From Escherichia phage SKA64, in sequence record OM362897.1: a stretch of DNA of 64,000 nucleotides; one strand, written 5' to 3'. The notes under the pieces are model-generated. The model was not told the origin of the DNA. It saw nothing but the letters and a program-made list of their open reading frames with translations, and did no database searches. The position numbers and the translations under genes are program-made. Below, one piece after another: positions 29,685 to 41,921 of the stretch; position 1 is the stretch's first letter; every line of letters starts with the position of its first letter.

Positions 29685-29720
29685 CAAAAAGAAAGGGCGC
29701 TTAGTGCGCCCCTTGTTTTG
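29685..29720. terminator. bidirectional terminator
   Basis: GGGCGCttagtGCGCCC hairpin flanked by A-run and T-run; same hairpin recurs at about 30260 and 36052. Confidence 0.6.
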
Positions 29721-29727
29721 TTGTCAA

Positions 29728-30147
29728 TTATAACGCTTCATAGATTGAGTAGATCCGGTTCGCCAGGTCATTACGAAAGCGGAATTTTTCATCACGTTTA
29801 ATCATCAGATCCTTAAAACCGCATTCTTTCAAGGCTTCATTAACTTTACTGCGGCATACTTTCATATTGTCCTGCGCGTCACCAATAAACTTATTGCTAT
29901 GATGCATTGCTTTGATCTCTTCCTCTAATACCAGGGCAACTACACGGACCGGATCAAGCTGATATGCGGTAACATCCATGCGGCATTGTAAACGGCTTTT
30001 AACATCGTTTACCGGATATACTGCAACCTCTTCCCCGTCAACGTTCACGATAACCAATTTACCATCGATTTCGAAGCCTTTGGCGGCGCTACCGTGACAA
30101 AAAGCGTTATCGAAGGAGTAAGCTGGATTATTTGATTTAATGTTCAT
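29728..30147 (-). CDS. hypothetical protein
   Basis: ORF track; AAGGACAACATC RBS. Confidence 0.55.
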   Translation of the reverse strand: MNIKSNNPAYSFDNAFCHGSAAKGFEIDGKLVIVNVDGEEVAVYPVNDVKSRLQCRMDVTAYQLDPVRVVALVLEEEIKAMHHSNKFIGDAQDNMKVCRSKVNEALKECGFKDLMIKRDEKFRFRNDLANRIYSIYEAL

Positions 30148-30287
30148 GATGTTGTCCTTTGTTTCGTTTCGTTGTTTGCTGCCAGTGAGTTAAATATAAT
30201 ATAACGCCGATCCCCTGTCAATAGGGGATAGCGCATTATTTACATTTCTTTACGTTAAAGGGCGCTTAGTGCGCCCCTTGTATAATC

Positions 30288-30656
30288 TTACTTTGTGCGG
30301 TTGTGAACGTTATCGCGTTCAACCATCAAGGCAAGGCGGATCAGTTGATCAGTTGTATCGCGTAAATTGTCGGGCCATGTTTTACTGTTCCAGCTATCCA
30401 TGTTTGATTGTATATAGGTTTCAATGGCTTGATCCATATTATCAAACAAGTTTTCCTCCAGGCTCTCGGCTGTTTCACACTGGAAAGCATTAGCGACACT
30501 ATTAATCAATAAGCAAGCCAGTAAATCAGCATTACGCCAATTTTTACGGATAGTTTCATCTTCCAGATAAGCTACCAAATTAATATTTGCGCCAGTGGTT
30601 GACGTTGCGATCACTTCTTGCGCTTTTTCAACTGCTTTAATTGCCGATTTGCTCAT
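30288..30656 (-). CDS. hypothetical protein
   Basis: internal ATG (MSKSAIKAV) after AAAGAGGAAAAG; track N-terminal extension runs through the promoter hairpin. Confidence 0.55.
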   Translation of the reverse strand: MSKSAIKAVEKAQEVIATSTTGANINLVAYLEDETIRKNWRNADLLACLLINSVANAFQCETAESLEENLFDNMDQAIETYIQSNMDSWNSKTWPDNLRDTTDQLIRLALMVERDNVHNRTK

Positions 30657-30673
30657 CTTCTTTTCCTCTTTGT

Positions 30674-30734
30674 GGGCTTGCTGTATTGCTCGCCCTACGT
30701 GATAAATAATAATAGAAAGGTGATCCGGTGTCAA
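30674..30734 (-). promoter_or_regulatory. promoter + leader hairpin cassette (variant)
   Basis: minus strand TTGACA...TATTAT-like -10, CACGTAGGGCG then weaker hairpin; upstream of 30288..30656. Confidence 0.45.
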
Positions 30735-30864
30735 TAGGTAGAATTGTAAAGATTCGATAGTTTATCTCTTTGATGTTTTGTTGTTTGATAGGTGTTAGCT
30801 ATCAATATATAGCGGGGTCGTCCGGTGATTACCTCCCCCGTTGCCAGTGCCGCCCGTTGAATAA

Positions 30865-30905
30865 GCATAACAAAAAACAGGACAAAAGCAAGCCCTGTTT
30901 TTGTA
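30865..30905 (-). terminator. rho-independent terminator (minus strand)
   Basis: aaacagg...cctgttt hairpin with U-run on minus strand after gene ending 30910. Confidence 0.45.
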
Positions 30906-30909
30906 AAGA

Positions 30910-31113
30910 TTAGATGATTTGCATATCCTCCACGATAATTTCTAATTTCCAAACAAGATGATCTAAGCTCCCTGATAAAAATGATTCCGATACATAACCG
31001 CCATCGGACACCGTAGCAAGGATCTCGCCATTTGCTTGCTCTTTGATTTGAACATCCAGGCGGTTAGCCTTTGCTTTGTTCAGGACGGCGATCAGGCGGT
31101 TAGCTGTAGTCAT
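30910..31113 (-). CDS. hypothetical protein
   Basis: ORF track; GGAAGGA RBS. Confidence 0.55.
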   Translation of the reverse strand: MTTANRLIAVLNKAKANRLDVQIKEQANGEILATVSDGGYVSESFLSGSLDHLVWKLEIIVEDMQII

Positions 31114-31135
31114 GGTGTTTTCCTTCCAGTTGTGA

Positions 31136-31191
31136 GCGGCACCATTGCCGCCCTACGTGATACATCTTACACTATCAGATACATTGTGCAA
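31136..31191 (-). promoter_or_regulatory. promoter + leader hairpin cassette
   Basis: minus strand TTGCAC, 16-17 bp, TAAGAT, then GTAGGG + hairpin gcggcaccattgccgc. Confidence 0.5.
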
Positions 31192-31197
31192 GCTATT

Positions 31198-31389
31198 TTA
31201 GATCTCGTCACCTATATAATCAGATCTGTTCTTCTCTGTCATACGTTTAAACAATTCTTGCATATGGCTGATAGCTTGCAATGTGTCTTCTTCCAGGCTT
31301 GAATCGAGATAATCAGGATCATTCTTTACCTTGCTATGGTTGTGATACCGCAACGCTGCTAATACCTTTCTAACTTGTTCTGCATTCAT
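31198..31389 (-). CDS. hypothetical protein
   Basis: ORF track; AAGGAG RBS. Confidence 0.55.
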   Translation of the reverse strand: MNAEQVRKVLAALRYHNHSKVKNDPDYLDSSLEEDTLQAISHMQELFKRMTEKNRSDYIGDEI

Positions 31390-31401
31390 TTTTATTACTC
31401 C

Positions 31402-31536
31402 TTAAAACCAGGTGCCAACCGTTTCCAATAGGTCACTGACTACCAGAACAACATTGATTAGCACATATTTAATCAGGAAGGGGATAAGCGCCAGCGTCGC
31501 TACTATGATCCCCATTGTGATGATTACCTTTCTCAT
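31402..31536 (-). CDS. 44 aa membrane peptide (not in ORF track)
   Basis: ATG 2 nt after upstream stop; MRKVIITMGIIVATLALIPFLIKYVLINVVLVV... Confidence 0.4.
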   Translation of the reverse strand: MRKVIITMGIIVATLALIPFLIKYVLINVVLVVSDLLETVGTWF

Positions 31537-31538
31537 CG

Positions 31539-31823
31539 TTAGCGGTTTACGTAAGCTTTACCGTTTACGGTCATCGGTATGGCTTCAAGGTCTGGATCTT
31601 CCTTAAGGTCGCGTGCAAGCTCACCGCACCGGACACCCTCGAATCCGTGGTATTCTGTTTCCCCGTCCTTAAAAGTTTTAGCGGCAAGGCATAGGCGATA
31701 ATTAACACCGATCCGGTTTACTGCGTTGATATCGGTTAACGTGATCGATTCCGGCAAATCGTTAGCCATGACAGGCGCGTTAATACCAACAACCAGGGCA
31801 ACTACTGCGATCATCTTTTTCAT
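31539..31823 (-). CDS. secreted protein with Sec signal peptide
   Basis: MKKMIAVVALVVGINAPVMA-ND; GAAGAGGA RBS. Confidence 0.55.
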   Translation of the reverse strand: MKKMIAVVALVVGINAPVMANDLPESITLTDINAVNRIGVNYRLCLAAKTFKDGETEYHGFEGVRCGELARDLKEDPDLEAIPMTVNGKAYVNR

Positions 31824-31858
31824 GTGTCTATCCTCTTCCTATTGCGTTTAATGGGGCG

Positions 31859-32095
31859 TTATTGATTGATGTTATGATGAAAGTTATTTTCTTCAACGGC
31901 TTTTAAAATAAAGGCTGTTACCGCTTTCGTGTCTACTTGTTCGAACGTATCAGAATAAGCCCAATAATGATCATCCCCTACTTTCGGCGGGTAAACCTGG
32001 ACAAGGAGATCGCCACCTGGTTGATCTATAAGCTCAACATGCAAGCCGGATGATTCGGCGGTTTTAACGGCGGTTAATACTGTTGCAATACTCAT
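31859..32095 (-). CDS. hypothetical protein
   Basis: ORF track. Confidence 0.5.
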   Translation of the reverse strand: MSIATVLTAVKTAESSGLHVELIDQPGGDLLVQVYPPKVGDDHYWAYSDTFEQVDTKAVTAFILKAVEENNFHHNINQ

Positions 32096-32140
32096 AATCT
32101 TTTCCCTTCCTGATGTGGGGCGTTGCCGCCCCTTTGTTGA

Positions 32141-32440
32141 TTAGATCGCTGTTTCCAGTAGTTCGGCTAACGTCTTACCGCCTGATAGTTGGTCTAACGT
32201 TTGCTCTTCTGGCAAGAAATTAGCGGATATTAAACCGACCTGGTTCCCTTTGTGCCAGTTAGCCTGACGGGTGATTCCATCCTTCAAGGATTTTACCGCC
32301 ATTGTGCAACCATCGCCAAATGATTCATTTTTATGGTCCATCACTTCATAAGCGCCCAGCTTGCTGCTGTTAGGCACCATTAACGCAAATACATCACCAA
32401 CAACCAGTTTTTCTACGGTAACAATAGCGATAGTTTCCAT
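32141..32440 (-). CDS. hypothetical protein
   Basis: ORF track; GAGGAAAA RBS. Confidence 0.55.
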   Translation of the reverse strand: METIAIVTVEKLVVGDVFALMVPNSSKLGAYEVMDHKNESFGDGCTMAVKSLKDGITRQANWHKGNQVGLISANFLPEEQTLDQLSGGKTLAELLETAI

Positions 32441-32459
32441 TTTGTTTTCCTCATTATCG

Positions 32460-32515
32460 GCGGCACCATTGCCGCCCTACGCATTAAATATAAATTATCT
32501 AAGAGATTAGATCAA
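32460..32515 (-). promoter_or_regulatory. promoter + leader hairpin cassette
   Basis: minus strand TTGATC ... TATTTA ... GCGTAGGG + gcggcaccattgccgc. Confidence 0.45.
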
Positions 32516-32518
32516 GGA

Positions 32519-32710
32519 TTATTTTGTAAAGATTACAGCTTCATCAAAATTTTCAACATAGTAAGCAAGTTTTTCATTTGCTGCAACCAGTTGTAAAAGT
32601 TGGTCGTAAGATAATCCATTGATCCCCTCTTCGTTGTTTAAAGCCTCGATGATTTCATCAACGGGCGCAAAAAACATGTTATTCGATTCCAGGTAGGTGA
32701 TAGTTTTCAT
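32519..32710 (-). CDS. hypothetical protein
   Basis: ORF track; AAAAGGTAAAAC RBS. Confidence 0.55.
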   Translation of the reverse strand: MKTITYLESNNMFFAPVDEIIEALNNEEGINGLSYDQLLQLVAANEKLAYYVENFDEAVIFTK

Positions 32711-32732
32711 AATGTTTTACCTTTTTCGGGGA

Positions 32733-32788
32733 GCGGCACCATTGCCGCCCTACGTGGTAAATATTAGCACACTGGCGATCTGTGTCAA
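32733..32788 (-). promoter_or_regulatory. promoter + leader hairpin cassette
   Basis: minus strand TTGACA, 16 bp, TAATAT, TTACCACGTAGGG + gcggcaccattgccgc. Confidence 0.55.
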
Positions 32789-32794
32789 TACTTT

Positions 32795-33181
32795 TTATTC
32801 AATATAAATCAAATTATCTTCACCAATGTAAGCCGACACGTTCGGCATAAACTTAGCTGCATTGGTTAGGCGGTTCGCCGTGTTAGTGGTGTATATTTCA
32901 GGGCGATCCCAAAAGCCTACGCCGTGACCGTTACGGGTAAAATGTAAATCATTCCCGATCTGGTTGGCTGTTGCGCCGTCGCTCATTGCCTCAGAGATAG
33001 CGGCAAGATTAGCATTAATAAAGGCTGTTACATCCTGGGCGATCCGTTCGTCCGCGCTAGGAGAAAAATCATAATCGTCTAAGTTATCAATAAAATTACC
33101 TTCATGATCCCTTGCTGATTCAGCAAAAATAAAGGCTTCTTTATAGCCGTTGATGATTTCAATAATGATTTCTGTTTTCAT
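32795..33181 (-). CDS. hypothetical protein
   Basis: ORF track; AAGAGAGA RBS. Confidence 0.55.
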   Translation of the reverse strand: MKTEIIIEIINGYKEAFIFAESARDHEGNFIDNLDDYDFSPSADERIAQDVTAFINANLAAISEAMSDGATANQIGNDLHFTRNGHGVGFWDRPEIYTTNTANRLTNAAKFMPNVSAYIGEDNLIYIE

Positions 33182-33195
33182 GTTGTGTCTCTCTT

Positions 33196-33300
33196 TTAGC
33201 CGATACCGTGGGAAGATAGGATCATGTTAGCCATAGTTGCAACCACTCCAACCGATAACGCCAGGCCCACTACTACGACCGTGAAAATTTTCTCTAACAT
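33196..33300 (-). CDS. 34 aa hydrophobic peptide (not in ORF track)
   Basis: MLEKIFTVVVVGLALSVGVVATMANMILSSHGIG between hairpin cassette and next gene. Confidence 0.4.
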   Translation of the reverse strand: MLEKIFTVVVVGLALSVGVVATMANMILSSHGIG

Positions 33301-33318
33301 GATTCTACCCTCATTAAT

Positions 33319-33380
33319 GGGCGTTGCCTTATTGCCCCGCCCTACGAAATACATTCTACCCGATTTATAATTGTTGTCAA
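33319..33380 (-). promoter_or_regulatory. promoter + leader hairpin cassette (variant stem)
   Basis: minus strand TTGACA ... TCGTAGGGCGGGG ... GC stem. Confidence 0.45.
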
Positions 33381-33381
33381 A

Positions 33382-33651
33382 TTATTTTTTCAAGCTTGAC
33401 CACTCAAAACACGGGGCGATCTCGTTAAAACTTGTGCCCTGTAAAGCACATAATTTTTTAGCAATAGCCGCCGTGACCTGGCGCTGTACGCGCGGATCTG
33501 CTACTGATTGGAGAAAGTAGGCGGCTTTATATGTGATCATGCTTTCACCTGTTTCCTTGTTAACATGATGCACTATTTTAGCCTTATCATCTTTTACCAG
33601 GATGTAACCGGATTCGATGGCCTTGATTGCAACGTCTAATGATATTTTCAT
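33382..33651 (-). CDS. hypothetical protein
   Basis: ORF track; intergenic hairpin ggcgggggagtattccccgcc upstream without promoter. Confidence 0.55.
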   Translation of the reverse strand: MKISLDVAIKAIESGYILVKDDKAKIVHHVNKETGESMITYKAAYFLQSVADPRVQRQVTAAIAKKLCALQGTSFNEIAPCFEWSSLKK

Positions 33652-33698
33652 GATTTACCTCTTTATTGACGGCGGGGAATACTCCCCCGCCTCATTAA

Positions 33699-33869
33699 TT
33701 ATTCTTCATCGTCGCCGTTATAGTATTCAATGCCATTTTCATCGGTTACGGTGATGTTAACGCCACCGATAGCAACACGATCACGGGCAAACGTCATAGC
33801 TTCATTTAAATCTTCAGACCAAAAAATATTGTGACCTTTGCGCGATACATAAAACATAGTCGGGATCAT
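33699..33869 (-). CDS. hypothetical protein (56 aa)
   Basis: internal ATG (MIPTMFY) after AGAAGAGAAAC; track extension covers hairpin. Confidence 0.5.
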   Translation of the reverse strand: MIPTMFYVSRKGHNIFWSEDLNEAMTFARDRVAIGGVNITVTDENGIEYYNGDDEE

Positions 33870-33890
33870 GATTTGTTTCTCTTCTGTTGT

Positions 33891-33953
33891 GAGCGGTGGA
33901 CCATTCCGCCGCTCTATGTAATAAACTTTACTACGTTGTTTGCCTACTGTCAA
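33891..33953 (-). promoter_or_regulatory. promoter + leader hairpin cassette
   Basis: minus strand TTGACA, 17 bp, TAAAGT, ACATAGAGCGG + gagcggtggaccattccgccgctc. Confidence 0.5.
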
Positions 33954-33954
33954 A

Positions 33955-34239
33955 TTATTTTTTAATGTTTTGCCCTACAAAATTGATCACTTCCTTAAGC
34001 TGTCTCTCTGTCATGATCGTACCTGGTAACTCTTCTTTAATTTCTTCTGGTAAATAGATATTACCGCGCCAGGTTAACAAACAACCGTTTTGATCTTCGC
34101 AGATAGAATAAGAAAACATCCACTCGCAATCATTCTCAAGCTCCCAAAAACACAAAAAGTCTTCTTTCCCTAAGTTTTCAACGGTTAAGCATAATCCGCG
34201 ACGTGCTGCATAATTAGTTAGGCTTTTTGTAATTTTCAT
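33955..34239 (-). CDS. hypothetical protein
   Basis: internal ATG (MKITKSL) after AAGAGAGAAAAATC. Confidence 0.55.
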   Translation of the reverse strand: MKITKSLTNYAARRGLCLTVENLGKEDFLCFWELENDCEWMFSYSICEDQNGCLLTWRGNIYLPEEIKEELPGTIMTERQLKEVINFVGQNIKK

Positions 34240-34260
34240 GATTTTTCTCTCTTCTTGTGA

Positions 34261-34316
34261 GCGGCACCATTGCCGCCCTACAAGATACATATTATCAGAC
34301 TACGCGGACTTGTCAA
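34261..34316 (-). promoter_or_regulatory. promoter + leader hairpin cassette
   Basis: minus strand TTGACA, 16 bp, TAATAT, CTTGTAGGG + gcggcaccattgccgc. Confidence 0.55.
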
Positions 34317-34317
34317 A

Positions 34318-34428
34318 CTATTTTTTCTTTTTCTTTGCTTCCAACCGTCTAAGGTTACGGCTTGACTTATTGCGCAAGGCGCTTAGATCGTCGTACCCTT
34401 TCCATGCTTGCATATCTTTCGGATTCAT
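34318..34428 (-). CDS. 36 aa basic small protein
   Basis: internal ATG of track ORF 34318..34590 after GGGGGATAAC; MNPKDMQAWKGYDDLSALRNKSSRNLRRLEAKKKKK. Confidence 0.4.
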   Translation of the reverse strand: MNPKDMQAWKGYDDLSALRNKSSRNLRRLEAKKKKK

Positions 34429-34438
34429 GTTATCCCCC

Positions 34439-34717
34439 TTAACGATTATAAACATTATGGATGGCTTCAAAGGCAAGATGACCATAAGCCGCCAAATCGG
34501 GATTGATCCAAGCGTTATCCAACATCGTTTCAAGGACTGTGGAATCATCGTATAAAGCATCATAGAAATCTGCACGGATGATCGTTTCAATGTCGTCCGG
34601 TGTTAGTTTGTCGTTCAACTTGCACACTGTTTCAACGTCAACACCAATTTTCCAATTTTGTAAATTAGTGGTTAACATTGTTTTCATTTCTTCGGTTGTT
34701 AATTTAACGATGGTCAT
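34439..34717 (-). CDS. hypothetical protein
   Basis: ORF track; AGAAGAGAGAAAAAATC RBS. Confidence 0.55.
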   Translation of the reverse strand: MTIVKLTTEEMKTMLTTNLQNWKIGVDVETVCKLNDKLTPDDIETIIRADFYDALYDDSTVLETMLDNAWINPDLAAYGHLAFEAIHNVYNR

Positions 34718-34738
34718 GATTTTTTCTCTCTTCTGTTA

Positions 34739-34796
34739 GGCGGGGCGCTTGTCGCCCCTATGTGATACATCTTATCAGGTTGATTCAGCTTGTCAA
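34739..34796 (-). promoter_or_regulatory. promoter + leader hairpin cassette
   Basis: minus strand TTGACA, 16 bp, TAAGAT, CACATAGGGG + ggcggggcgcttgtcgcccc. Confidence 0.55.
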
Positions 34797-34797
34797 A

Positions 34798-34959
34798 CTA
34801 TTTGTTAGCCGGATTATATGCCAGGACCGCGCCGCTTGCTTTCACACTTTCCGCTTCATAGTTGCGCAGATCGTTTTCTGTAAGATTGAGCGCGATCACT
34901 TCCTCGACTTCAACGCCAGCGACAAGGGCGATCTCTTTGATAATGTCTGTTATTTTCAT
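34798..34959 (-). CDS. hypothetical protein (53 aa)
   Basis: internal ATG (MKITDII) after TAAGGTG. Confidence 0.5.
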   Translation of the reverse strand: MKITDIIKEIALVAGVEVEEVIALNLTENDLRNYEAESVKASGAVLAYNPANK

Positions 34960-34969
34960 GGTGTGCACC

Positions 34970-35089
34970 TTATAAGATGATTGATAAGATAGTGACAACG
35001 AAAGCGATTATACTGATGGCAAATGTCATCTTTTTACCTTCGGATACTGCCGGATTCTCTACCGTGTATTCTACTGTGTACTTGCTCAT
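34970..35089 (-). CDS. 39 aa membrane peptide (not in ORF track)
   Basis: ATG after GAGAGGA; MSKYTVEYTVENPAVSEGKKMTFAISIIAFVVTILSIIL. Confidence 0.4.
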   Translation of the reverse strand: MSKYTVEYTVENPAVSEGKKMTFAISIIAFVVTILSIIL

Positions 35090-35112
35090 CGTGTAATCCT
35101 CTCGTTTGCTTT

Positions 35113-35169
35113 GGGAACTATTCCCGCCGCCCTATGAATTAAATATACACTATCTCAAAATGATTGCAA
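35113..35169 (-). promoter_or_regulatory. promoter + leader hairpin cassette
   Basis: minus strand TTGCAA, 17 bp, TATATT, TCATAGGGCGGCGGG + gggaactattccc. Confidence 0.5.
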
Positions 35170-35186
35170 GCCTTTTTCTAAATTAT

Positions 35187-35471
35187 TTATGCAGTAAACA
35201 AACCATCATTTACAACGGCGGCGATGATCTCCCGTGCCATTGATTCAGGGAAAGGGGCGCTATAGTCCTGGCTTGTCTCATCGGTATCAGTGATCCAATG
35301 ATAAGCTAACGAGTAAAAGCCTTTACTAACTGTTTTCAGTGAGATGATGATCACTCGGTCAAGCTTATTGGTGAATGTTGCCGTTAATGTGTTACCATCC
35401 TGCGTCATGTTGGACAAGTAAGCGGGATCATTAATCAGGGAAAACATTAGCACGGTGTTAGCTTTACTCAT
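35187..35471 (-). CDS. hypothetical protein
   Basis: internal ATG (MSKANTV) after TTGAGGA. Confidence 0.55.
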   Translation of the reverse strand: MSKANTVLMFSLINDPAYLSNMTQDGNTLTATFTNKLDRVIIISLKTVSKGFYSLAYHWITDTDETSQDYSAPFPESMAREIIAAVVNDGLFTA

Positions 35472-35492
35472 GATTGCATCCTCAAAGGGGCG

Positions 35493-35546
35493 CGGCACCA
35501 TTGCCGCCCTACACGATAACTATAACACAATATAAAACAGGATCAA
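35493..35546 (-). promoter_or_regulatory. promoter + leader hairpin cassette
   Basis: minus strand TTGATC ... TATAGT ... GTGTAGGG + gcggcaccattgccgc. Confidence 0.45.
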
Positions 35547-35749
35547 CCTTTATTTTTCCACGGTGTCAGCTTGTTAATCATTGGTGATAAATAGCGTTTA
35601 CCAACGTAAAACAGCACGCCAACTGATGCAACGGCGGCGATCTCATGCATAGCCGACGGGAAACGGGTATCATAATAAGATCCAATAATAGCAATAGCGG
35701 CAACGGCTGCAACGTCGATAATGATTTTTTCTTGTTTTGCGGTGATCAT
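35543..35749 (-). CDS. small membrane protein (68 aa)
   Basis: internal ATG (MITAKQEK) after AAAAAGGTAAA; hydrophobic AAVAAIAIIGSYY. Confidence 0.5.
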   Translation of the reverse strand: MITAKQEKIIIDVAAVAAIAIIGSYYDTRFPSAMHEIAAVASVGVLFYVGKRYLSPMINKLTPWKNKG

Positions 35750-35770
35750 AATATTTACCTTTTTGTATGG

Positions 35771-35829
35771 TGGGGGAACTATTCCCCGCCTGATGTAATA
35801 CAGTTTAACAGGTCCGGTTATGGTGTCAA
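35771..35829 (-). promoter_or_regulatory. promoter + leader hairpin cassette
   Basis: minus strand TTGACA, 16 bp, TAAACT, + ggcggggaatagttccccca hairpin. Confidence 0.5.
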
Positions 35830-35835
35830 CCACTT

Positions 35836-36021
35836 TTAAAGATATTTTATACTGATAACGTTTTCCGGTTTAACCTTGTTGTGATGTGCATCAACATAGA
35901 TCAAACCATCGTCAGAAAAGCCCAGGATCACGCCCTGCGCGATAAAACCGTATTCGTCACGGTAACGCACGGCTATTTTTAATGTTGCGTTGTAGGCTGT
36001 TTTAAGCTCGTTTAAAGTCAT
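35836..36021 (-). CDS. hypothetical protein
   Basis: ORF track. Confidence 0.5.
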   Translation of the reverse strand: MTLNELKTAYNATLKIAVRYRDEYGFIAQGVILGFSDDGLIYVDAHHNKVKPENVISIKYL

Positions 36022-36039
36022 TTTTGTTTATCCTCTACA

Positions 36040-36070
36040 TGTAAAAAGAAAGGGCGCTTGGTGCGCCCTT
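36040..36070 (-). terminator. rho-independent terminator (minus strand)
   Basis: GGGCGCaccaaGCGCCC hairpin followed on minus strand by UUUCUUUUU. Confidence 0.6.
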
Positions 36071-36076
36071 GTTATG

Positions 36077-36223
36077 TTAATTCTCTAAATCCATCCAATT
36101 ATATTTGTCACTCTTCCCGCGCTTTGTTTTATTGCGCTTGTCGCCTTTGCGGATCACTTCCTCATTCCAGGCCTTGCGGATCTTGGAAGATTGAATTTTT
36201 TCTGCACGATTAGATGTATTCAT
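36077..36223 (-). CDS. 48 aa basic small protein (not in ORF track)
   Basis: ATG after AAAGAGGAAAC; MNTSNRAEKIQSSKIRKAWNEEVIRKGDKRNKTKRGKSDKYNWMDLEN. Confidence 0.45.
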   Translation of the reverse strand: MNTSNRAEKIQSSKIRKAWNEEVIRKGDKRNKTKRGKSDKYNWMDLEN

Positions 36224-36243
36224 TTTGTTTCCTCTTTATATGA

Positions 36244-36296
36244 GCGGCACCATTGCCGCTATATTATTAATTTAAACTGTTTTGTAAAATTGTCAA
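36244..36296 (-). promoter_or_regulatory. promoter + leader hairpin cassette
   Basis: minus strand TTGACA ... TAAATT ... gcggcaatggtgccgc. Confidence 0.5.
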
Positions 36297-36302
36297 GGTT
36301 TA

Positions 36303-36656
36303 TCATTCATAAGAGCAAGCAAGGATCACGCCTGCAATATAAAGCCAATAATTTTCCCTTTCTCGTTGGATTTTATCATCGCTGCTATTCTCTTTAATGT
36401 ATCCCCAGGATGTTAACAAGCGATCAATTTCCCAATATTCGAAAGCGATATTAATATCTGATGGCAAACCTTGTAACCATGATGCTATTGCTCTGATAAT
36501 GTTATGATCGTAACGTTTTTGGTTATCGGTATACCAATACTCGGATTTAAAACAGCGCATCAATTCCGCGATCTTCTCTTTATCTTCTGTGATGCCATAC
36601 TTGCTATAATCAATTGAGGCCAGAATATAAAGTTTAATTGCATTTTGTGCTTTCAT
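36303..36656 (-). CDS. hypothetical protein
   Basis: ORF track; AGAGAGACACC RBS. Confidence 0.55.
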   Translation of the reverse strand: MKAQNAIKLYILASIDYSKYGITEDKEKIAELMRCFKSEYWYTDNQKRYDHNIIRAIASWLQGLPSDINIAFEYWEIDRLLTSWGYIKENSSDDKIQRERENYWLYIAGVILACSYE

Positions 36657-36676
36657 GGTGTCTCTCTTCTGTTGTT

Positions 36677-36733
36677 GGCGGCACCATTGCCGCCCTACTT
36701 GTTACATCTTACTGGATTTTTAAAACTTGTCAA
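36677..36733 (-). promoter_or_regulatory. promoter + leader hairpin cassette
   Basis: minus strand TTGACA, 16 bp, TAAGAT, AACAAGTAGGG + ggcggcaatggtgccgcc. Confidence 0.55.
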
Positions 36734-36955
36734 TCATTTTTCTACTATCATTTGATACCCTGTTTCAACGTTAGAAAACACTGTTATCCCGTCCTGGCGT
36801 TCACTCATTAACATACAAGGCGCTAACATCCTTTCTACTGCCTTGCACTCGTTGTAAACGGCGGTTATATCTCCTGCTGCCTTGTCTTCTGTAGTAAATG
36901 TCTCATTTACGTAAACTTGACCAGCGACAACGGCGACAATAGCGAAAGTGATCAT
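36734..36955 (-). CDS. hypothetical protein
   Basis: ORF track; AAGGAAAC RBS; shares first codons ATGATCACTTTCGCTA with gene starting 37196. Confidence 0.55.
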   Translation of the reverse strand: MITFAIVAVVAGQVYVNETFTTEDKAAGDITAVYNECKAVERMLAPCMLMSERQDGITVFSNVETGYQMIVEK

Positions 36956-36989
36956 GATGTTTCCTTGTTAGTAGTGGTTTCTCTTCTCT

Positions 36990-37025
36990 ATAGCGCCCAT
37001 TATAGGCGCTATAACGAAAAGTCAA
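36990..37025 (-). promoter_or_regulatory. promoter + hairpin cassette (variant; -10 inside stem)
   Basis: minus strand TTGACT then atagcgccTATAATgggcgctat palindrome. Confidence 0.4.
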
Positions 37026-37028
37026 CTA

Positions 37029-37196
37029 TTATTTTTTAAGGCTTAAAGTGCCTAGCTTATCAGCGTGACGCAGACCAGGGAAGATCCATTTTCCTGATTC
37101 ATCTTTCACCGGGGCTTTAAAAGTAGCGCCCAGGTTGGCGGCGTTAACTTTACGTGCAACGTTGCGAGCGGCTTCACGGGTAGCGAAAGTGATCAT
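37029..37196 (-). CDS. 55 aa small protein (not in ORF track)
   Basis: ATG after GAGGAAAATATC; MITFATREAARNVARKVNAANLGATFKAPVKDESGKW... Confidence 0.45.
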   Translation of the reverse strand: MITFATREAARNVARKVNAANLGATFKAPVKDESGKWIFPGLRHADKLGTLSLKK

Positions 37197-37220
37197 GATA
37201 TTTTCCTCTTCTCTTTGTTA

Positions 37221-37282
37221 GGCGGTGGACCATTCCGCCGCCTTGATGTAATACAGTTTACTTTATTTTTGCAGTATTGCAA
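37221..37282 (-). promoter_or_regulatory. promoter + leader hairpin cassette
   Basis: minus strand TTGCAA ... hairpin ggcggcggaatggtccaccgcc. Confidence 0.4.
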
Positions 37283-37288
37283 GCGGTT

Positions 37289-37504
37289 TTATGAAATAAA
37301 TGTCAAAGTAAAATCATAATCTTTTGACAGTTTATATTGCACCTTGTTACCGTATATGTCACCTTTACGTAAAGATCCACGGATACCGATAACATCCTTC
37401 ACGTCTTTTAAATTTTTCACGCCTGTAATGTCTTTGTTGAAATACTCGTCATCTGAAAATAAAACTTGCTTTGCATTTTTTAACAAGGTGCGGATATTAG
37501 CCAT
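37289..37504 (-). CDS. hypothetical protein
   Basis: internal ATG (MANIRTLL) after AAGAGAGATTATC. Confidence 0.5.
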   Translation of the reverse strand: MANIRTLLKNAKQVLFSDDEYFNKDITGVKNLKDVKDVIGIRGSLRKGDIYGNKVQYKLSKDYDFTLTFIS

Positions 37505-37526
37505 TTTGATAATCTCTCTTACTAGG

Positions 37527-37584
37527 GGCGGCAATAGTGCCGCCCTATGAATTACATTTTACTAATTTTAGTTGTCTTGTCAAT
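37527..37584 (-). promoter_or_regulatory. promoter + leader hairpin cassette
   Basis: minus strand TTGACA, 16 bp, TAAAAT, TCATAGGG + ggcggcactattgccgcc. Confidence 0.55.
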
Positions 37585-37591
37585 ATTATTT

Positions 37592-37819
37592 TTAGTTTAA
37601 TTGATCCAGGCATAACAGACGATCAACGTTGAGATCGGTCAGGCTAATCGTTGGCACCTGGTAGGATTCGATGTACTCAACGCTCGACCATTGCCCAAAG
37701 TTAGCGACCGCCCAGCTATTCAATGAGGAGTGAAGATCATCCCCTTTCTTCTCGGTGATAACTGCTACTACCTGGGAGATTCCAACCGTGCCGGATACGC
37801 GAACAATAACGATAGCCAT
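37592..37819 (-). CDS. hypothetical protein
   Basis: ORF track; AAAGAAAGGTTATC RBS. Confidence 0.5.
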   Translation of the reverse strand: MAIVIVRVSGTVGISQVVAVITEKKGDDLHSSLNSWAVANFGQWSSVEYIESYQVPTISLTDLNVDRLLCLDQLN

Positions 37820-37841
37820 AATGATAACCTTTCTTTGATTT

Positions 37842-37902
37842 GGCGGGAAACCATTTCCCGCCCTATGCGATAAACTACACCAGATTAAAAAACGTTGTCA
37901 AC
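37842..37902 (-). promoter_or_regulatory. promoter + leader hairpin cassette
   Basis: minus strand TTGACA ... GCATAGGG + ggcgggaaatggtttcccgcc. Confidence 0.5.
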
Positions 37903-37910
37903 TGCTTTTA

Positions 37911-38150
37911 TTACATTCCTACCATAGCGGCACGGATTGCAGTTTTACTATACTTGAAACCATCAGGTGTATGAGTGATTCCATCCTGTTTTAATCTGTA
38001 GCACATCAGATCCGCCGCTTTATCTTTATTGCCGCACTCATTTATTAAACCTACAGCGTATAAGTATAACGATTCATCATTATTAATCCAAAGGCTTACA
38101 TTCCAATGAGTTTTATTTTTGTGACCGTTGTACATTTTAGATTTAGCCAT
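37911..38150 (-). CDS. hypothetical protein
   Basis: ORF track; AAAGAGATTAAC RBS. Confidence 0.5.
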   Translation of the reverse strand: MAKSKMYNGHKNKTHWNVSLWINNDESLYLYAVGLINECGNKDKAADLMCYRLKQDGITHTPDGFKYSKTAIRAAMVGM

Positions 38151-38174
38151 GATGTTAATCTCTTTTTCAGTGAG

Positions 38175-38232
38175 GCGGGAACTATTCCCGCTCTCGATAT
38201 AAGTATTATATGCTTTTTATTCGTGCTGTCAA
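38175..38232 (-). promoter_or_regulatory. promoter + leader hairpin cassette
   Basis: minus strand TTGACA ... TAATAC ... gcgggaatagttcccgc. Confidence 0.5.
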
Positions 38233-38238
38233 TGCTTT

Positions 38239-38604
38239 TTATAAATCTTTTTTACGTTTTACATCGCTTGCATGACTGTATACAGCGATCCCATTATCAC
38301 GGCAAAAGCGGGAAAGGTAGGCATAATTTGAAAACTCTTTACCTTCCAGGTTGATAACCTTGCTAAACTCTTCTAGGGCGACGGTATCAAAATGATCACC
38401 ATAGCCATATTGAAACGGAACGTTAACCACCTCGATCAGTTTACCGCCGATCTCAACGTCAACCATTAAAGAAAAATATGTATTACCGTAGGACCGTTGA
38501 AACCAGCGACGGGCGCTAATATGCACCGCCTCAATGCTGGATAATTCAATTTTAGCCGTGTTAGCCAGGGTAGCATAAGCGGAAACATTAATATTAATAG
38601 CCAT
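38239..38604 (-). CDS. hypothetical protein
   Basis: internal ATG (MAININ) preferred. Confidence 0.5.
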   Translation of the reverse strand: MAININVSAYATLANTAKIELSSIEAVHISARRWFQRSYGNTYFSLMVDVEIGGKLIEVVNVPFQYGYGDHFDTVALEEFSKVINLEGKEFSNYAYLSRFCRDNGIAVYSHASDVKRKKDL

Positions 38605-38636
38605 GATGATAACCTTTTTCATTGTTGGCGGGAAAC

Positions 38637-38696
38637 CACTTCCCGCCCTATGTGGTAAACTATACTAGAATTTTAAACAATGTCAACCGTTTTTAT
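38637..38696 (-). promoter_or_regulatory. promoter + leader hairpin cassette
   Basis: minus strand TTGACA ... TAGTTT ... CACATAGGG + ggcgggaagtggtttcccgcc. Confidence 0.5.
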
Positions 38697-39055
38697 TCGT
38701 AAATTTTACCGCTTTCAGCCCATACCATAACGCGGCGCATACTATCCCAAGTGTTTTGATCCAGGTTTAAGCCGTGCAACTCTTCGGTACTTTCCAGACC
38801 AGGTACCGCCTTGTTGTAAGTCGCATATAAGCGCCCTTGATACTCATACGCCAGAGTAAGATCCGTTTGAATCATCTTTTTAAGCATAGCATTAAGCATC
38901 ATATTAGCGGCATGTTGATCACGTTTTAGCGGTAACATATCAATAAAGGCGCGATAAGCTGAAACATGAATATCAACCGTTTCACGTGGTAAATTTTTCA
39001 TGTCATCGCGGAAAGATACCAGATTAAACATGATAGTATTGATTTGCTTGCTCAT
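38693..39055 (-). CDS. hypothetical protein
   Basis: internal ATG (MSKQINTI) preferred; track extension covers hairpin. Confidence 0.5.
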   Translation of the reverse strand: MSKQINTIMFNLVSFRDDMKNLPRETVDIHVSAYRAFIDMLPLKRDQHAANMMLNAMLKKMIQTDLTLAYEYQGRLYATYNKAVPGLESTEELHGLNLDQNTWDSMRRVMVWAESGKIYE

Positions 39056-39076
39056 TGTGTTACCCTTTTTTGTTTT

Positions 39077-39138
39077 GGCGGGGAAGTATTCCACCGCCCT
39101 ATGTGTTACATCTTATCAGATTAAAAAACGTTGTCAAG
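39077..39138 (-). promoter_or_regulatory. promoter + leader hairpin cassette
   Basis: minus strand TTGACA, 16-17 bp, TAAGAT, ACACATAGGG + ggcggtggaatacttccccgcc. Confidence 0.55.
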
Positions 39139-39155
39139 AATATTTTTAGATAATT

Positions 39156-39437
39156 TTAACTGTATGATCCACATCGTTCGCAGTAGTGATCATCGTCGTC
39201 ATCAGCTACCTGGCTGATAAAGTGATCTACTTTTGCTTTTAGGTTATTATAATTATTTTCTACTTCCTTTAATCGCTCCTGATAGTATCCCAGGGCTTCA
39301 ATATACGCCGCCTCTTCTGTTTTTTCACGCATGGCTAAATTCATGCCGCGCGTATCATCATACAGCCAAAAACCATCGGTGCACTCACTCATTGAAAGGG
39401 TAGGGCTTAACTCTTTATGATTAATTACCTTGCTCAT
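39156..39437 (-). CDS. hypothetical protein
   Basis: internal ATG (MSKVINHK); C-terminal CERCGS. Confidence 0.5.
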   Translation of the reverse strand: MSKVINHKELSPTLSMSECTDGFWLYDDTRGMNLAMREKTEEAAYIEALGYYQERLKEVENNYNNLKAKVDHFISQVADDDDDHYCERCGSYS

Positions 39438-39447
39438 AGTGTGCGCC

Positions 39448-39552
39448 TTATAGAATGATTGAAACAACAATTGCTACAGTGATCCACACTGGAACGGCTA
39501 ACAAAATAGCGTTAATCGTTCCAACCGTCAAACTATTTTCTTTATTAATCAT
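39448..39552 (-). CDS. 34 aa membrane peptide (not in ORF track)
   Basis: MINKENSLTVGTINAILLAVPVWITVAIVVSIIL directly downstream of a cassette. Confidence 0.4.
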   Translation of the reverse strand: MINKENSLTVGTINAILLAVPVWITVAIVVSIIL

Positions 39553-39581
39553 TGTAAGCCTCTTGCATAATTTCACTATGA

Positions 39582-39638
39582 GCGGCACCATTGCCGCCCT
39601 ACGTGGTAAATATTATGCCAGTGGCGGCGATATGTCAA
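39582..39638 (-). promoter_or_regulatory. promoter + leader hairpin cassette
   Basis: minus strand TTGACA ... TAATAT, TTACCACGTAGGG + gcggcaatggtgccgc. Confidence 0.55.
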
Positions 39639-40201
39639 AGACTATTTTCAAAGTTTTCTAGTGCGATCCTTTTTTCTTCCTCTGTTGGCTGATAATCAGG
39701 AAAAGCATCAACACACAACAACGGCGGGATCTCTTCGTACTCTTCCTCTTCCGTTGTCTCCTCGTCTTCCTCCTGGGCTATGGCTGCAATTTTGGCTAAT
39801 TTTCTTTCAGCTTGAATCAATTTACCATCAAGTACGTTTTTTGCCATATTGTAAGCGGTCCAGGTTATGCGCTTACTTTCTAATGCTTCCTCAAGCGCCG
39901 CTATCTTGCTGGGGTATTCATCCAGGACACGAAAAGCCGGATCAACTTTGTACAAAGGATTATCTTTCGCGCCGTCGCTCGCATCTTCCGCACTGGATAA
40001 ATCAGCGTTACCATTTGCCAGCCAGCCAGGGCGCACATAACGCGCTTTTACGTTGCCGTTACTACGTGCTAATCTGTTACCTATTTGCTCACCGCTATAT
40101 CCCGTGGATTCATCGATAAGATGATCGGTAATGATGCGCGGATCATCTGCTTCATGTTTTACCCAAGACTGGATCACATATTCGCGGCCCATATTAACCA
40201 C
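39635..40201 (-). CDS. hypothetical protein with acidic C-terminal region
   Basis: ORF track; AAAAGGTGG RBS. Confidence 0.55.
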   Translation of the reverse strand: MVNMGREYVIQSWVKHEADDPRIITDHLIDESTGYSGEQIGNRLARSNGNVKARYVRPGWLANGNADLSSAEDASDGAKDNPLYKVDPAFRVLDEYPSKIAALEEALESKRITWTAYNMAKNVLDGKLIQAERKLAKIAAIAQEEDEETTEEEEYEEIPPLLCVDAFPDYQPTEEEKRIALENFENSL

Positions 40202-40451
40202 CTTTTTTCAACAATTGGCATACTTTAAAAAGACTTGCTGAATCCTTGCAAGGGTAGAAAGATGTACGATAGTCACGTACGCCAACCTTGCGGATCTCGA
40301 TGTTCTCGCATGTTGTTTGATCAAAGATATTTATTTCATCATGCCCCCTTATATAAACATAGTGGGGATGTATTAACGCATATTTTGCTAATCTGTAAAA
40401 AGCGTTATCTTTGAACGCGATCACGTGACCTTTTAATTTGATGTAAAACAT
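40194..40451 (-). CDS. hypothetical protein
   Basis: ORF track; AAGGTGG RBS. Confidence 0.5.
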   Translation of the reverse strand: MFYIKLKGHVIAFKDNAFYRLAKYALIHPHYVYIRGHDEINIFDQTTCENIEIRKVGVRDYRTSFYPCKDSASLFKVCQLLKKGG

Positions 40452-40468
40452 TCTACCACCTTACAAAT

Positions 40469-40523
40469 AGCGGGAACTATTCCCGCTTTATGTAACATAT
40501 TAACAAATTATTCGTTAATGTCA
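40469..40523 (-). promoter_or_regulatory. promoter + leader hairpin cassette
   Basis: minus strand TTGACA ... TAATAT ... gcgggaatagttcccgc. Confidence 0.5.
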
Positions 40524-40527
40524 AGCC

Positions 40528-40800
40528 TTAAAGCAAAAACGCTACATCTTGCGCTTTTAGTGTAGTATCAACCATTTTCGGGCTTTTATAATCAACAAAG
40601 CGCGCGGTTTTTTCAATAGCGAAACCGAGATAATCTTGTTTATTGAATTTACATTCTTTCTTAAATGTTTCCCGCGCCACGGTGATCGCTGCGTCCAGGG
40701 ATAAACGCCCGTCAATGTTGATATTTGCGAAAGATCCGCCACCGCTCATAGGTTTACCAGTGGTGCCAGTTACGATCATTGTTGCGCTATATGATGCCAT
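40528..40800 (-). CDS. hypothetical protein
   Basis: ORF track; AGAAGAGAGAAATC RBS. Confidence 0.55.
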   Translation of the reverse strand: MASYSATMIVTGTTGKPMSGGGSFANINIDGRLSLDAAITVARETFKKECKFNKQDYLGFAIEKTARFVDYKSPKMVDTTLKAQDVAFLL

Positions 40801-40821
40801 GATGATTTCTCTCTTCTGTTA

Positions 40822-40879
40822 GGCGGGGCGCTTGTCGCCCCTATGTGATACATCTTATCAGGTTGTGGCTTGTTGTCAA
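40822..40879 (-). promoter_or_regulatory. promoter + leader hairpin cassette
   Basis: minus strand TTGACA ... TAAGAT, CACATAGGGG + ggggcgacaagcgccccgcc. Confidence 0.55.
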
Positions 40880-40884
40880 GACTT

Positions 40885-41082
40885 TTATTCTATTCCTGCA
40901 ATCTGCTTAACGCGCTTGCATTTTGCAGTATGCTGATCTTCTGTAATTACTCCCATTTCTAACAGTGAATCAATGAAAGATAAAACCGTTTCATGATCAT
41001 CTTGGGGATGACTGAACTCAGTAAAACCGTTTACTATTACGTTGATTTGTCCAGCTTTCGCCACAATGTGCAATGTTGCCAT
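40885..41082 (-). CDS. hypothetical protein (65 aa)
   Basis: internal ATG (MATLHIV) after GGAG. Confidence 0.5.
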   Translation of the reverse strand: MATLHIVAKAGQINVIVNGFTEFSHPQDDHETVLSFIDSLLEMGVITEDQHTAKCKRVKQIAGIE

Positions 41083-41103
41083 GATCTTAACTCCAAATAG
41101 TGA

Positions 41104-41160
41104 GCGGCACCATTGCCGCCCTACGTGGTAAATATTATGCCGCCACCTGGCGAACGTCAA
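41104..41160 (-). promoter_or_regulatory. promoter + leader hairpin cassette
   Basis: minus strand TTGACG ... TAATAT, TTACCACGTAGGG + gcggcaatggtgccgc. Confidence 0.5.
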
Positions 41161-41268
41161 CCACTTTTTCAATCTTTTTATTTTCTTTTTGCTTGCTATA
41201 TATAAAGGAAAGGGCTATCATCTTTCTACCGCGCCAACCAGGGCGCACAACAAAGAAAGGGCGACACC

Positions 41269-41535: not shown

Positions 41536-41537
41536 TC

Positions 41538-41566: not shown

Positions 41567-41572
41567 GTTTTA

Positions 41573-41903: not shown

Positions 41904-41921
41904 ATCTGCATAAATTTTTGT

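Follow-up and report, generated by a model that had tools for sequence, protein, structure and literature searches.

Promoter-early stem-loop (PeSL) cassettes were described in the hyperplastic regions of the T4-type phages RB49/phi1, T4/PST, and KVP40/nt-1 (PMC2839356, PMC4122927). They are composite repeats of ~80 to 100 base pairs (bp) that occupy the space between two small genes of unknown function, starting at the stop codon of the first and reaching the Shine-Dalgarno (SD) sequence and start codon of the second. Each combines a stem-loop, rich first in G and then in C, with a consensus sigma-70 promoter and a stretch rich in A/T. The cassettes are concentrated in plastic regions, where close relatives differ by the gain, loss, and replacement of cassette-flanked genes and where crossovers fall in or beside the stem-loop. 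All of these properties recur in an array of small genes in Escherichia phage SKA64 (sequence record OM362897.1), from which a stretch of 64,000 nucleotides (nt), called here the window and numbered from its first letter, was analyzed. This array, on the minus strand between positions 29728 and 41082, is probably the hyperplastic early accessory-gene region of a Phapecoctavirus, in which cassette modules are shuffled by recombination.

The assignment of the source genome to Phapecoctavirus (rV5/phAPEC8-type myoviruses of Escherichia coli) comes from blast searches with the 11.4-kb stretch, in which all strong matches are Stephanstirmvirinae and the best is phage tuntematon, itself a Phapecoctavirus (93.4% nucleotide identity, 90% coverage, in 11 pieces). 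Parts of the cassette have been annotated in this group before. In the phAPEC8 record (GenBank JX561091), the "host dependent promoter (MEME)" corresponds to the sigma-70 part of the same elements, and the 20-nt "putative promoter determined with PHIRE" (cgtagggcggcaatggtgcc) corresponds to the hairpin; the record thus reads the repeat as a second, phage-specific promoter and contains neither a joint hairpin cassette nor a recombination role. The rV5 paper reports 33 promoters, with no notion of a cassette. No paper describing composite recombining cassettes in the rV5/phAPEC8 group was found in the searchable literature, which is incomplete, and a literature search returned no transcriptome or start-site map for this group.

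Of the 36 genes in the array, 25 have their own sigma-70 promoter in the upstream spacer, and 23 of these 25 promoters are followed by a hairpin at the standard position. The unit starts at the stop codon that ends the preceding gene and continues with an A-rich stretch, TTGACA, 16 to 17 nt, TAnnnT, 9 to 11 nt, a hairpin of 6 to 9 bp, 18 to 24 nt that include the SD sequence, ATG, and a small coding sequence (CDS). Spacers of 71 to 100 nt are occupied by the cassette alone, with almost no other sequence. Among 23 aligned cassettes, TTGACA is perfect in 17, with hexamer spacings of 16 to 18 nt and AAAAA as the upstream consensus; ribosome-binding sites read AGAGAG, AAGG, or GAGG; and the hairpins are G+C-rich, with GGGCGGCA-ATGG-TGCCGCYC as the commonest form. 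The first-pass annotation had assigned an individual promoter cassette to most genes, which holds for these 25, but the conserved hairpin, which makes up half of the cassette, was missing from it.

The cassettes are confined to the array, apart from one isolated copy. Within the array, the minus strand has 19 copies of TTGACA versus one on the plus strand, and a strict rule that requires a promoter and a perfect hairpin returns 16 minus-strand cassettes (32492 to 41137) versus ~1 in shuffled sequences. The irregular members are g13, with a palindrome over the -10 hexamer; g36, with a promoter and no hairpin; and the spacers of g25 and g30, with a hairpin and no promoter. The other promoterless genes lie 1 to 35 nt behind a neighbor, with which they are presumably cotranscribed. 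Within the window, cassettes are found only at 30.6 to 41.2 kb (minus strand), plus one at 62990 to 63066 (plus strand), and the complete genome of phage 536P1 has 12 strict cassettes in its array, one at the 63-kb equivalent, and five further matches that look unrelated. The isolated cassette, also present in 536P1, consists of TTGACA-16-TAAGAT, the hairpin GCGGGGAATAGTTCCCCGC, an SD sequence, and an ATG at 63066 that begins a small hydrophobic open reading frame (ORF).

The association of promoter and hairpin was evaluated with 17 promoters that were picked by a hexamer scan alone, with hairpins not presupposed, by folding the 40 nt after each -10 hexamer. Sixteen of the 17 segments fold at -11 to -21 kcal/mol (z scores of -2.1 to -5.5), with stems that start 10 to 12 nt after the -10. 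RNAalifold predicted no pairs on the MAFFT alignment of cassettes because stems of different lengths fall out of register in that alignment. Among orthologous cassettes, substitutions per nucleotide are fewest in the -35 hexamer (0.003), stem (0.013), SD segment (0.020), and -10 hexamer (0.029) and most numerous in the segment between the -10 and the hairpin (0.049), the promoter spacer (0.055), and the loop (0.060), indicating that the -35, the stem, and the SD sequence are under selection. Loops evolve ~4.6 times faster than stems (P = 5e-5), a value that, like others in this footprint, is approximate because cassette variants are not phylogenetically independent. Several changes within stems keep pairing through G-U; such changes outnumber those to A-C by 5 to 1, a weak sign of a role at the RNA level in that all five derive from one ancestral pair. 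Since the stems differ in sequence, length, and loop with pairing kept, it is the structure that is conserved and not a motif.

The promoters are near the sigma-70 consensus, so unmodified host RNA polymerase should transcribe each module alone, straight after infection. A transcription start 6 to 8 nt after the -10 would place the hairpin at about +3 to +5, as a 5'-terminal structure of each mRNA. 5' stem-loops are reported to protect E. coli mRNAs of the ompA/papA type (Emory et al. 1992 and Bouvet & Belasco 1992, as presented in the review PMC3997798), and a stabilizer of this type calls for a stem ~2 to 4 nt from the 5' end; the stems of the array start 9 to 11 nt after the -10, which would correspond to +3 to +5 at the usual initiation distance. 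In such a position, the hairpin would shield short monocistronic mRNAs from the 5'-end-dependent decay initiated by RppH and RNase E. We tentatively favor this role of 5'-terminal mRNA stabilizer, and do so because the distance from the -10 is fixed, there is no T tract, the SD sequence is free, and structure rather than sequence is conserved.

A rather unlikely alternative is that the hairpin acts as an attenuator or terminator that insulates its module from upstream read-through, as proposed for T4-type PeSLs; in RB49, a PeSL stem-loop inserted behind a promoter and ahead of lacZ reduced expression to the same degree as rrnB T1 (PMC2839356). An intrinsic terminator would be expected to end in a T run, but no cassette hairpin is followed by one on the coding strand, the tails being rich in A and C. 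With 25 promoters but only ~4 canonical terminators over 11.4 kb, read-through would accumulate and some means of damping it would be sensible, and the two spacers that have a hairpin without a promoter suit such a function. However, the phage uses canonical terminators where they are needed: a coding-strand scan flags only 29692 to 29714, 30873 to 30902, and 36050 to 36070, all separate from the cassette hairpins and of the form GGGCGCAC...CCC plus a T tract. Nor would a terminator need the tight spacing of 9 to 11 nt from the -10.

The gene content of the array was compared with that of ten relatives. Nine are Phapecoctavirus, of which tuntematon, Ro121c4YLVW, Mt1B1_P17, EP57, nieznany, 536P1, dw-ec, and Schickermooser were compared by blast chains and phAPEC8 by its annotated region; the tenth is phage cardinal (Justusliebigvirus). 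Relative to the window, whole genes are inserted, deleted, or replaced in these phages, and one module of two genes is rearranged. Among the nine Phapecoctavirus relatives, g05 and g06 are present in none, g25 in one, g34 in two, and g21 and g28 in three. Of 30 clusters of breakpoints, 17 are intergenic and 27 are intergenic or within 15 nt of a gene end, compared with an expectation of 32% (P = 6e-11).

Far from being invariant and syntenic among relatives, the outcome against which the first-pass annotation had set its reading, the array is where Phapecoctavirus and its relatives differ most from each other, as judged by coverage. At least 80% of it is covered by 9 of 293 matching phage records, versus 59 of 71 records for an equal-length control at 14000 to 25444 and 60 of 133 for a second one at 49000 to 60444, which holds replication and nucleotide-metabolism genes (identity up to 98.9%). 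The first control resembles the array in having ~40 small genes on the same strand but has no cassettes, and relatives cover 98 to 100% of it at 96 to 98% identity.

Several of these differences have junctions within cassettes. Phage nieznany lacks 32460 to 34260 (g24 to g28), and the junction lies in a 21-nt identical hairpin, GTAGGGCGGCAATGGTGCCGC, common to the cassettes of g29 and g23. Phage phAPEC8 lacks g28 and retains a lone cassette that corresponds to the g28 cassette of the window in its promoter half and to the g29 cassette beyond the hairpin, which is where the two halves meet. Five relatives have an extra 293-bp module at 30691 to 30708; in the window, the cassette of g35 is chimeric and joins, by a crossover in CGTAGGGCG, the two cassettes found on either side of this module. 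The loss of g30 from 536P1 occurred between repeats of AACGCCCCA, the 3' arm of a hairpin, and the g21 insertion/deletion (indel) comprises cassette and CDS, exactly from stop codon to stop codon. The cassettes of g21 and g02 are 90% identical over 82 nt despite lying 6 kb apart, and the longest identical stretch between cassettes is the hairpin, at up to 21 nt. By these alignments, at least three of the junctions are chimeric cassettes that recombined within the hairpin.

The ~80-bp cassettes are dispersed direct repeats and, by genome comparison, serve homologous recombination, by which modules are deleted, inserted, replaced, or moved, also between genera. The compared genomes document that modules are gained, lost, replaced, and rearranged and that some of the crossovers took place within cassettes. 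Turnover at cassette boundaries and cassette-mediated shuffling, both raised in the first-pass annotation, are thus borne out, and the chimeric cassettes are better evidence for shuffling than the shared gene start on which the suggestion had been based. That start does exist: the adjacent genes g12 and g13 both begin with ATGATCACTTTCGCTA, a 16-nt common prefix, and the next-best among 630 gene pairs is 9 nt. The proteins are unrelated beyond it. The g13 orthologue of tuntematon carries the same 16 nt, and both genes are present in all 8 relatives whose sampled stretch covers both, so the shared start is probably old and is not attributable to one specific event; it fits a junction a few codons into a gene and proves nothing alone. 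Between these two genes, relatives have an extra gene of 219 nt.

Other observations weigh against the proposal that the array consists of early modules shuffled through their cassettes. Cassette homology is present at only ~4 of ~15 distinct indel events, the rest having 6 to 9 nt of microhomology or none, and a second deletion in nieznany (29930 to 31791) arose at a 14-nt match with both copies in coding sequence. Even alone, selection against indels that disrupt genes would shift breakpoints toward gene ends, and it must contribute to their distribution. The hairpin-only spacers of g25 and g30 and the hairpinless promoter of g36 show that the two parts of the cassette are separable. The segment that separates the -10 from the hairpin accumulates changes at the same rate as the promoter spacer, so there is no 5' leader motif under selection. 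Finally, promoter geometry is the basis on which we place transcription early, locate its starts, and position the hairpin within the RNA.

Some of these points could be met by supposing that cassettes are not causal, with illegitimate or microhomology-mediated indels arising anywhere and selection retaining those that change whole genes. We consider this unlikely. It would account for the many junctions with 6 to 9 nt of identity only, for the 14-nt match within coding sequence, and for breakpoints at gene ends where there is no cassette, as at the g33/g32 and g26/g27 boundaries, but three or four junctions are exact two-cassette chimeras, and near-identical cassettes 6 kb apart adjoin variable genes. 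Furthermore, the neighboring 11.4 kb, with equal small-gene density, the same strand, and no cassettes, is nearly invariant. An integron-type gene cassette array was considered and rejected: no integrase domain occurs in the 36 products, each module has its own promoter, and the repeats lie 5' of the genes.

Mosaicism extends across genera. The proteins encoded by g05, g06, g08, g10, g11, and g12 are 96 to 99% identical to those of phage cardinal, compared with 35 to 76% for the neighboring g03, g04, g07, g09, and g14, and the DNA at 36975 to 38604 is only ~83% identical to other Phapecoctavirus genomes. The blocks of high identity end at the stop codons of g12 (37029) and g09 (37909/37911) and at the starts of g08 (38604) and g05 (39555). 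The order of modules differs too, since cardinal has g03 and g04 together between g07 and g08.

A role of the hairpin as preferred site of crossover could coexist with any role in RNA or DNA. One such role, which we regard as quite unlikely, is that the inverted repeat is an operator at about +3 to +22, a DNA or nascent-RNA site for a phage or host regulator that tunes or shuts off all early promoters together. Repressors typically bind just downstream of the start, ~24 promoters have the element, and its commonest form, GCGGCA-ATGG-TGCCGC, is highly conserved. Yet the stems of this genome and its close relatives vary (GCGGCA, GGGGCG, GCGGGAA, GGCGGGAA, and CGGCGGA), with lengths of 5 to 9 bp, loops of 3 to 5 nt, and pairing kept, which fits a structure rather than a sequence-specific half-site; the rapid evolution of loops relative to stems argues in the same direction, and no DNA-binding protein was identified among the array products. 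It is also doubtful that the hairpin is a common 5' "tag" on ~24 early mRNAs that is read by a phage or host factor and that the cassettes self-mobilize modules between genera with no dedicated recombinase. If so, phage transcripts might be spared while host mRNA is degraded, or their translation or decay might be set as a group, and modules might excise and move between coinfecting phages of different genera.

By the pattern of substitutions, the ORFs of the array are real small-protein genes under coding selection. Relative to orthologues in the nine relatives, substitutions at first, second, and third codon positions number 130:63:403 across all array genes (binomial P = 2e-65), with 397 synonymous and 199 nonsynonymous. 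The eight genes of 55 amino acids (aa) or fewer show the same pattern (17:11:49, third position 49 of 77; binomial P = 5e-8), with 49 synonymous and 28 nonsynonymous. That many of the small ORFs, above all those of 34 to 55 aa, are not genes and that the region is mainly regulatory or noncoding is scarcely credible: several ORFs do fall below usual gene-calling limits and three products have no PHROG family, but against this stand the excess of third-position and synonymous changes in the shortest genes, an SD-like sequence and ATG in all of them, and a full-length PHROG match for seven of the eight.

The 36 genes (Table 1) were obtained from ORF listings and SD scoring, with curation, and encode proteins of 34 to 185 aa (median, 76.5 aa; 29 of 36 below 100 aa); coding sequence makes up 78% of the array. 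The estimate of ~35 very small genes in the first-pass annotation was therefore sound, but its upstream end at 41172 was not: that position is a TTG from which the longest ORF can be read. For g01, the ATG at 41082 (65 aa) is almost certainly the true start, since an extension to the TTG would take in the promoter-hairpin cassette and the gene annotated in relatives is 198 nt long. The size range of 33 to 190 aa in the first-pass annotation was close, the upper limit coming from a GTG start (188 aa) in place of the SD-preceded ATG (185 aa), and its five or more hydrophobic or basic peptides of 34 to 55 aa are confirmed as four with a single transmembrane (TM) segment (g05, g19, g26, and g32) and three strongly basic ones (g12, g15, and g22). 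The ORF 30731..30952 (TTG start, 73 aa) was rejected as a gene because it has a terminator within it, runs into the end of g34, and matches no family. A tRNA scan of the window found no tRNA gene, and an Rfam scan of 27000 to 43000, with E values up to 1, gave chance-level matches only.

The annotation of relatives lists 30 to 40 minus-strand "hypothetical proteins" in this region. PHROG families are matched by 33 of the 36 products; 32 are of "unknown function," and the family of g19 is "membrane protein." Pfam matches are limited to g15 (T7 gene 1.1 family, PF08200, E = 4.9e-13), g09 (DUF7249), and one weak match to DUF1033. The earlier view that no family could be recognized was thus nearly right, apart from the three Pfam matches, but "orphan" is too strong a term for genes that nearly all belong to phage protein families, several of which are common to different genera. 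Searches with PADLOC, Pfam, NCBIfam, and PDB sequences matched no product to an anti-defense or takeover protein, and PDB sequence searches with g04, g08, g14, g27, and g36, along with a g27 profile, returned nothing below an E value of 0.3. The g27 protein belongs to a widespread family with an invariant RNGHGVGFWDR, and its structure model (pLDDT 96) has no fold match in PDB; the model of g04 (pLDDT 68) has a conserved N-terminal half that is too poor for a fold search. The g31 product begins with a signal-peptide-like segment and therefore is probably exported, which would be unusual among array products. A role of these products in host takeover or counter-defense is plausible, but this label rests on analogy with other phages, since no sequence match supports it.

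Several database records of homologous regions bear labels that merit comment. In the Shigella phage SF1-1 record, the position homologous to g15, a T7 gene 1.1-family protein in a myovirus, is labeled "distal tail protein Dit," apparently a misannotation. At the position of g11, tuntematon encodes a 70-aa protein (10697 to 10909) annotated as "phosphoribosylpyrophosphate synthetase," a name inherited from phage Av-05 and probably wrong because 70 aa is far too small for the enzyme. Records MG065645, MG065650, MG065656, and MG065677 ("Campylobacter phage," 140 to 151 kb) closely match the array and the cassette, and in one of them the homologue of g15 is 98% identical as a protein. These records look like coliphages of the rV5/phAPEC8 type under the wrong host.

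TABLE 1 Genes, cassettes, and terminators of the array (window coordinates; all features on the minus strand)
Feature	Coordinates	Product	Upstream element	Remarks
g01	40885..41082	65 aa; phrog_23268	Cassette 41083-41160, TTGACG-17-TAATAT, hairpin GGGCGGCAATGGTGCCGCTC	Codon-position substitutions 3:1:17
g02	40528..40800	90 aa	Cassette 40801-40879, hairpin GGGGCGACAAGCGCCCC	
g03	40194..40451	85 aa	Cassette 40452-40524	
g04	39635..40192	185 aa; acidic tail	No own promoter	1 nt behind g03
g05	39448..39552	34 aa; single TM	Cassette 39553-39638	97% aa identity to cardinal; in 0/9 Phapecoctavirus relatives
g06	39156..39437	93 aa	No own promoter	Variable module
g07	38693..39055	120 aa	Cassette 39056-39137	
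g08	38239..38604	121 aa	Cassette 38605-38686	
g09	37911..38150	79 aa; Pfam DUF7249	Cassette 38151-38232, TTGACA-16-TATAAT	
g10	37592..37819	75 aa	Cassette 37820-37901	99% aa identity to cardinal
g11	37289..37504	71 aa	Cassette 37505-37583	
g12	37029..37196	55 aa; basic	Cassette 37197-37282	First 16 nt as in g13
g13	36734..36955	73 aa	Variant cassette 36956-37025	Palindrome over -10 (TATAGCGCC-TATAAT-GGGCGCTATA)
g14	36303..36656	117 aa	Cassette 36657-36733	
g15	36077..36223	48 aa; basic; Pfam Phage_1_1	Cassette 36224-36296	
Terminator after g15	36050..36070			Canonical intrinsic, AAGGGCGCACCAAGCGCCCTT + TCTTTTT
g16	35836..36021	61 aa	Promoterless	Directly behind terminator
g17	35543..35749	68 aa; possible TM	Cassette 35750-35829	
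g18	35187..35471	94 aa	Cassette 35472-35546, -35 TTGATC	
g19	34970..35089	39 aa; TM peptide; phrog_10979 "membrane protein"	Cassette 35090-35169	
g20	34798..34959	53 aa	No own promoter	
g21	34439..34717	92 aa	Cassette 34718-34796	Module 34438-34798 missing in 6/9 relatives
g22	34318..34428	36 aa; basic	No own promoter	
g23	33955..34239	94 aa	Cassette 34240-34316	Hairpin is one end of 1.8-kb nieznany deletion
g24	33699..33869	56 aa	Cassette 33870-33953	
g25	33382..33651	89 aa; no PHROG family	Spacer 33652-33698, hairpin only	In 1/9 relatives
g26	33196..33300	34 aa; TM peptide	Cassette 33301-33380	
g27	32795..33181	128 aa	No own promoter	Invariant RNGHGVGFWDR motif
g28	32519..32710	63 aa; no PHROG family	Cassette 32711-32788	Absent in phAPEC8
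g29	32141..32440	99 aa	Cassette 32441-32515	Hairpin is other end of nieznany deletion
g30	31859..32095	78 aa	Spacer 32096-32140, hairpin only (GGGGCGGCAACGCCCC)	Deleted in 536P1
g31	31539..31823	94 aa; N-terminal signal-peptide-like segment MKKMIAVVALVVGINAPVMA	Promoterless	
g32	31402..31515	37 aa; TM peptide (44 aa from start 31536)	Promoterless	
g33	31198..31389	63 aa	Promoterless	Variable; in 4/9 relatives
g34	30910..31113	67 aa	Cassette 31114-31191, -35 TTGCAC	Variable; in 2/9 relatives
Terminator after g34	30873..30902			Intrinsic; ARNold annotation in phage Schickermooser
g35	30288..30656	122 aa	Cassette 30657-30734	Chimeric vs five relatives with extra 293-bp module
Terminator-like hairpin after g35	30246..30276			GGGGCGCACTAAGCGCCC, weak T tract
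g36	29728..30147	139 aa	Promoter 30193-30221, TTGACA-17-TATATT	No downstream hairpin
Array-closing terminator	29692..29714			Canonical intrinsic

The array is bracketed by two mostly noncoding stretches that share a palindromic motif, ATGAGAATGATTATCATT, which (with up to 3 mismatches) has 10 matches at ~7 sites versus 0.23 expected by chance. All sites lie in these two stretches (28501 to 28524, 28686 to 28703, and 29462 to 29479; 41795 to 41813, 41824 to 41841, and 41853 to 41871), and they are kept in tuntematon, where the three upstream copies form a 29-bp tandem repeat annotated as a repeat_region. The motif resembles the E. coli Fur box, GATAATGATAATCATTATC. Downstream of the array, ~1.5 kb (28165 to 29690) contains no convincing ORF but has short T/G-rich direct repeats and several inverted repeats, with no Rfam match; the same gap occurs in relatives (tuntematon 4292 to 5890), and the rV5 paper shows a "non-coding" box.

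On the other side, the plus strand at 41538 to 41700 has a promoter-like TTGACA-17-TATACT with a small hairpin between the hexamers, followed by ~130 nt of unusually G+C-rich sequence without an ORF or an Rfam match, which could be a small RNA or a structured leader. Beside the Fur-box-like repeats, 41910 to 42100 is A/T-rich, with repeated AACTTTAAATTTTG...TTTTGTAAA units between divergent transcription units, and looks like a replication-origin or control region.

Phapecoctavirus and related phages are widely isolated for phage therapy and for the biocontrol of pathogenic E. coli. Since the array is the main difference between such phages, it probably holds genes that tune host range and resistance to bacterial defenses. 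Its modular variation gives a simple rule for finding accessory genes, ready-made boundaries for their deletion or swapping, and a plausible route for their exchange between genera, with a practical value that depends on the functions of the 36 proteins.

Among known systems, arrays of many tiny, nonessential early genes read by host RNA polymerase are typical of T4-, T5-, and T7-type phages, and the membership of g15 in the T7 gp1.1 family adds to this likeness. In T7, early genes share few promoters and have RNase III sites between them, whereas most genes here have a private promoter and hairpin. Like ompA/papA-type stabilizers, the cassette hairpin is predicted to be stable and to lie a few nucleotides into the mRNA, ahead of an SD sequence that stays accessible; it differs from them in occurring on ~24 phage mRNAs, with predicted 5' ends, and not on one host mRNA. 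The closest counterparts are the PeSL cassettes, for which promoter and terminator activity and excised mini-circles have been demonstrated. In contrast to PeSLs, they belong to a lineage, Stephanstirmvirinae, that is not T4-like, form a single array per genome, and have the stem-loop fixed 9 to 11 nt after the -10 and so within the predicted transcript, compared with five placements in T4-type phages, of which those between the hexamers or over them are the most frequent. With the cassette as query, blastn returned 144 records, and all 40 that were listed are rV5-, phi92-, or phAPEC8-type genomes of 130 to 161 kb, with no T4-type phage among them, so the cassette looks like an analogue rather than a homologue of the PeSL. 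This extends the PeSL idea beyond T4-type phages and suggests that promoter-hairpin repeats are a convergent solution for making early genes shuffleable.

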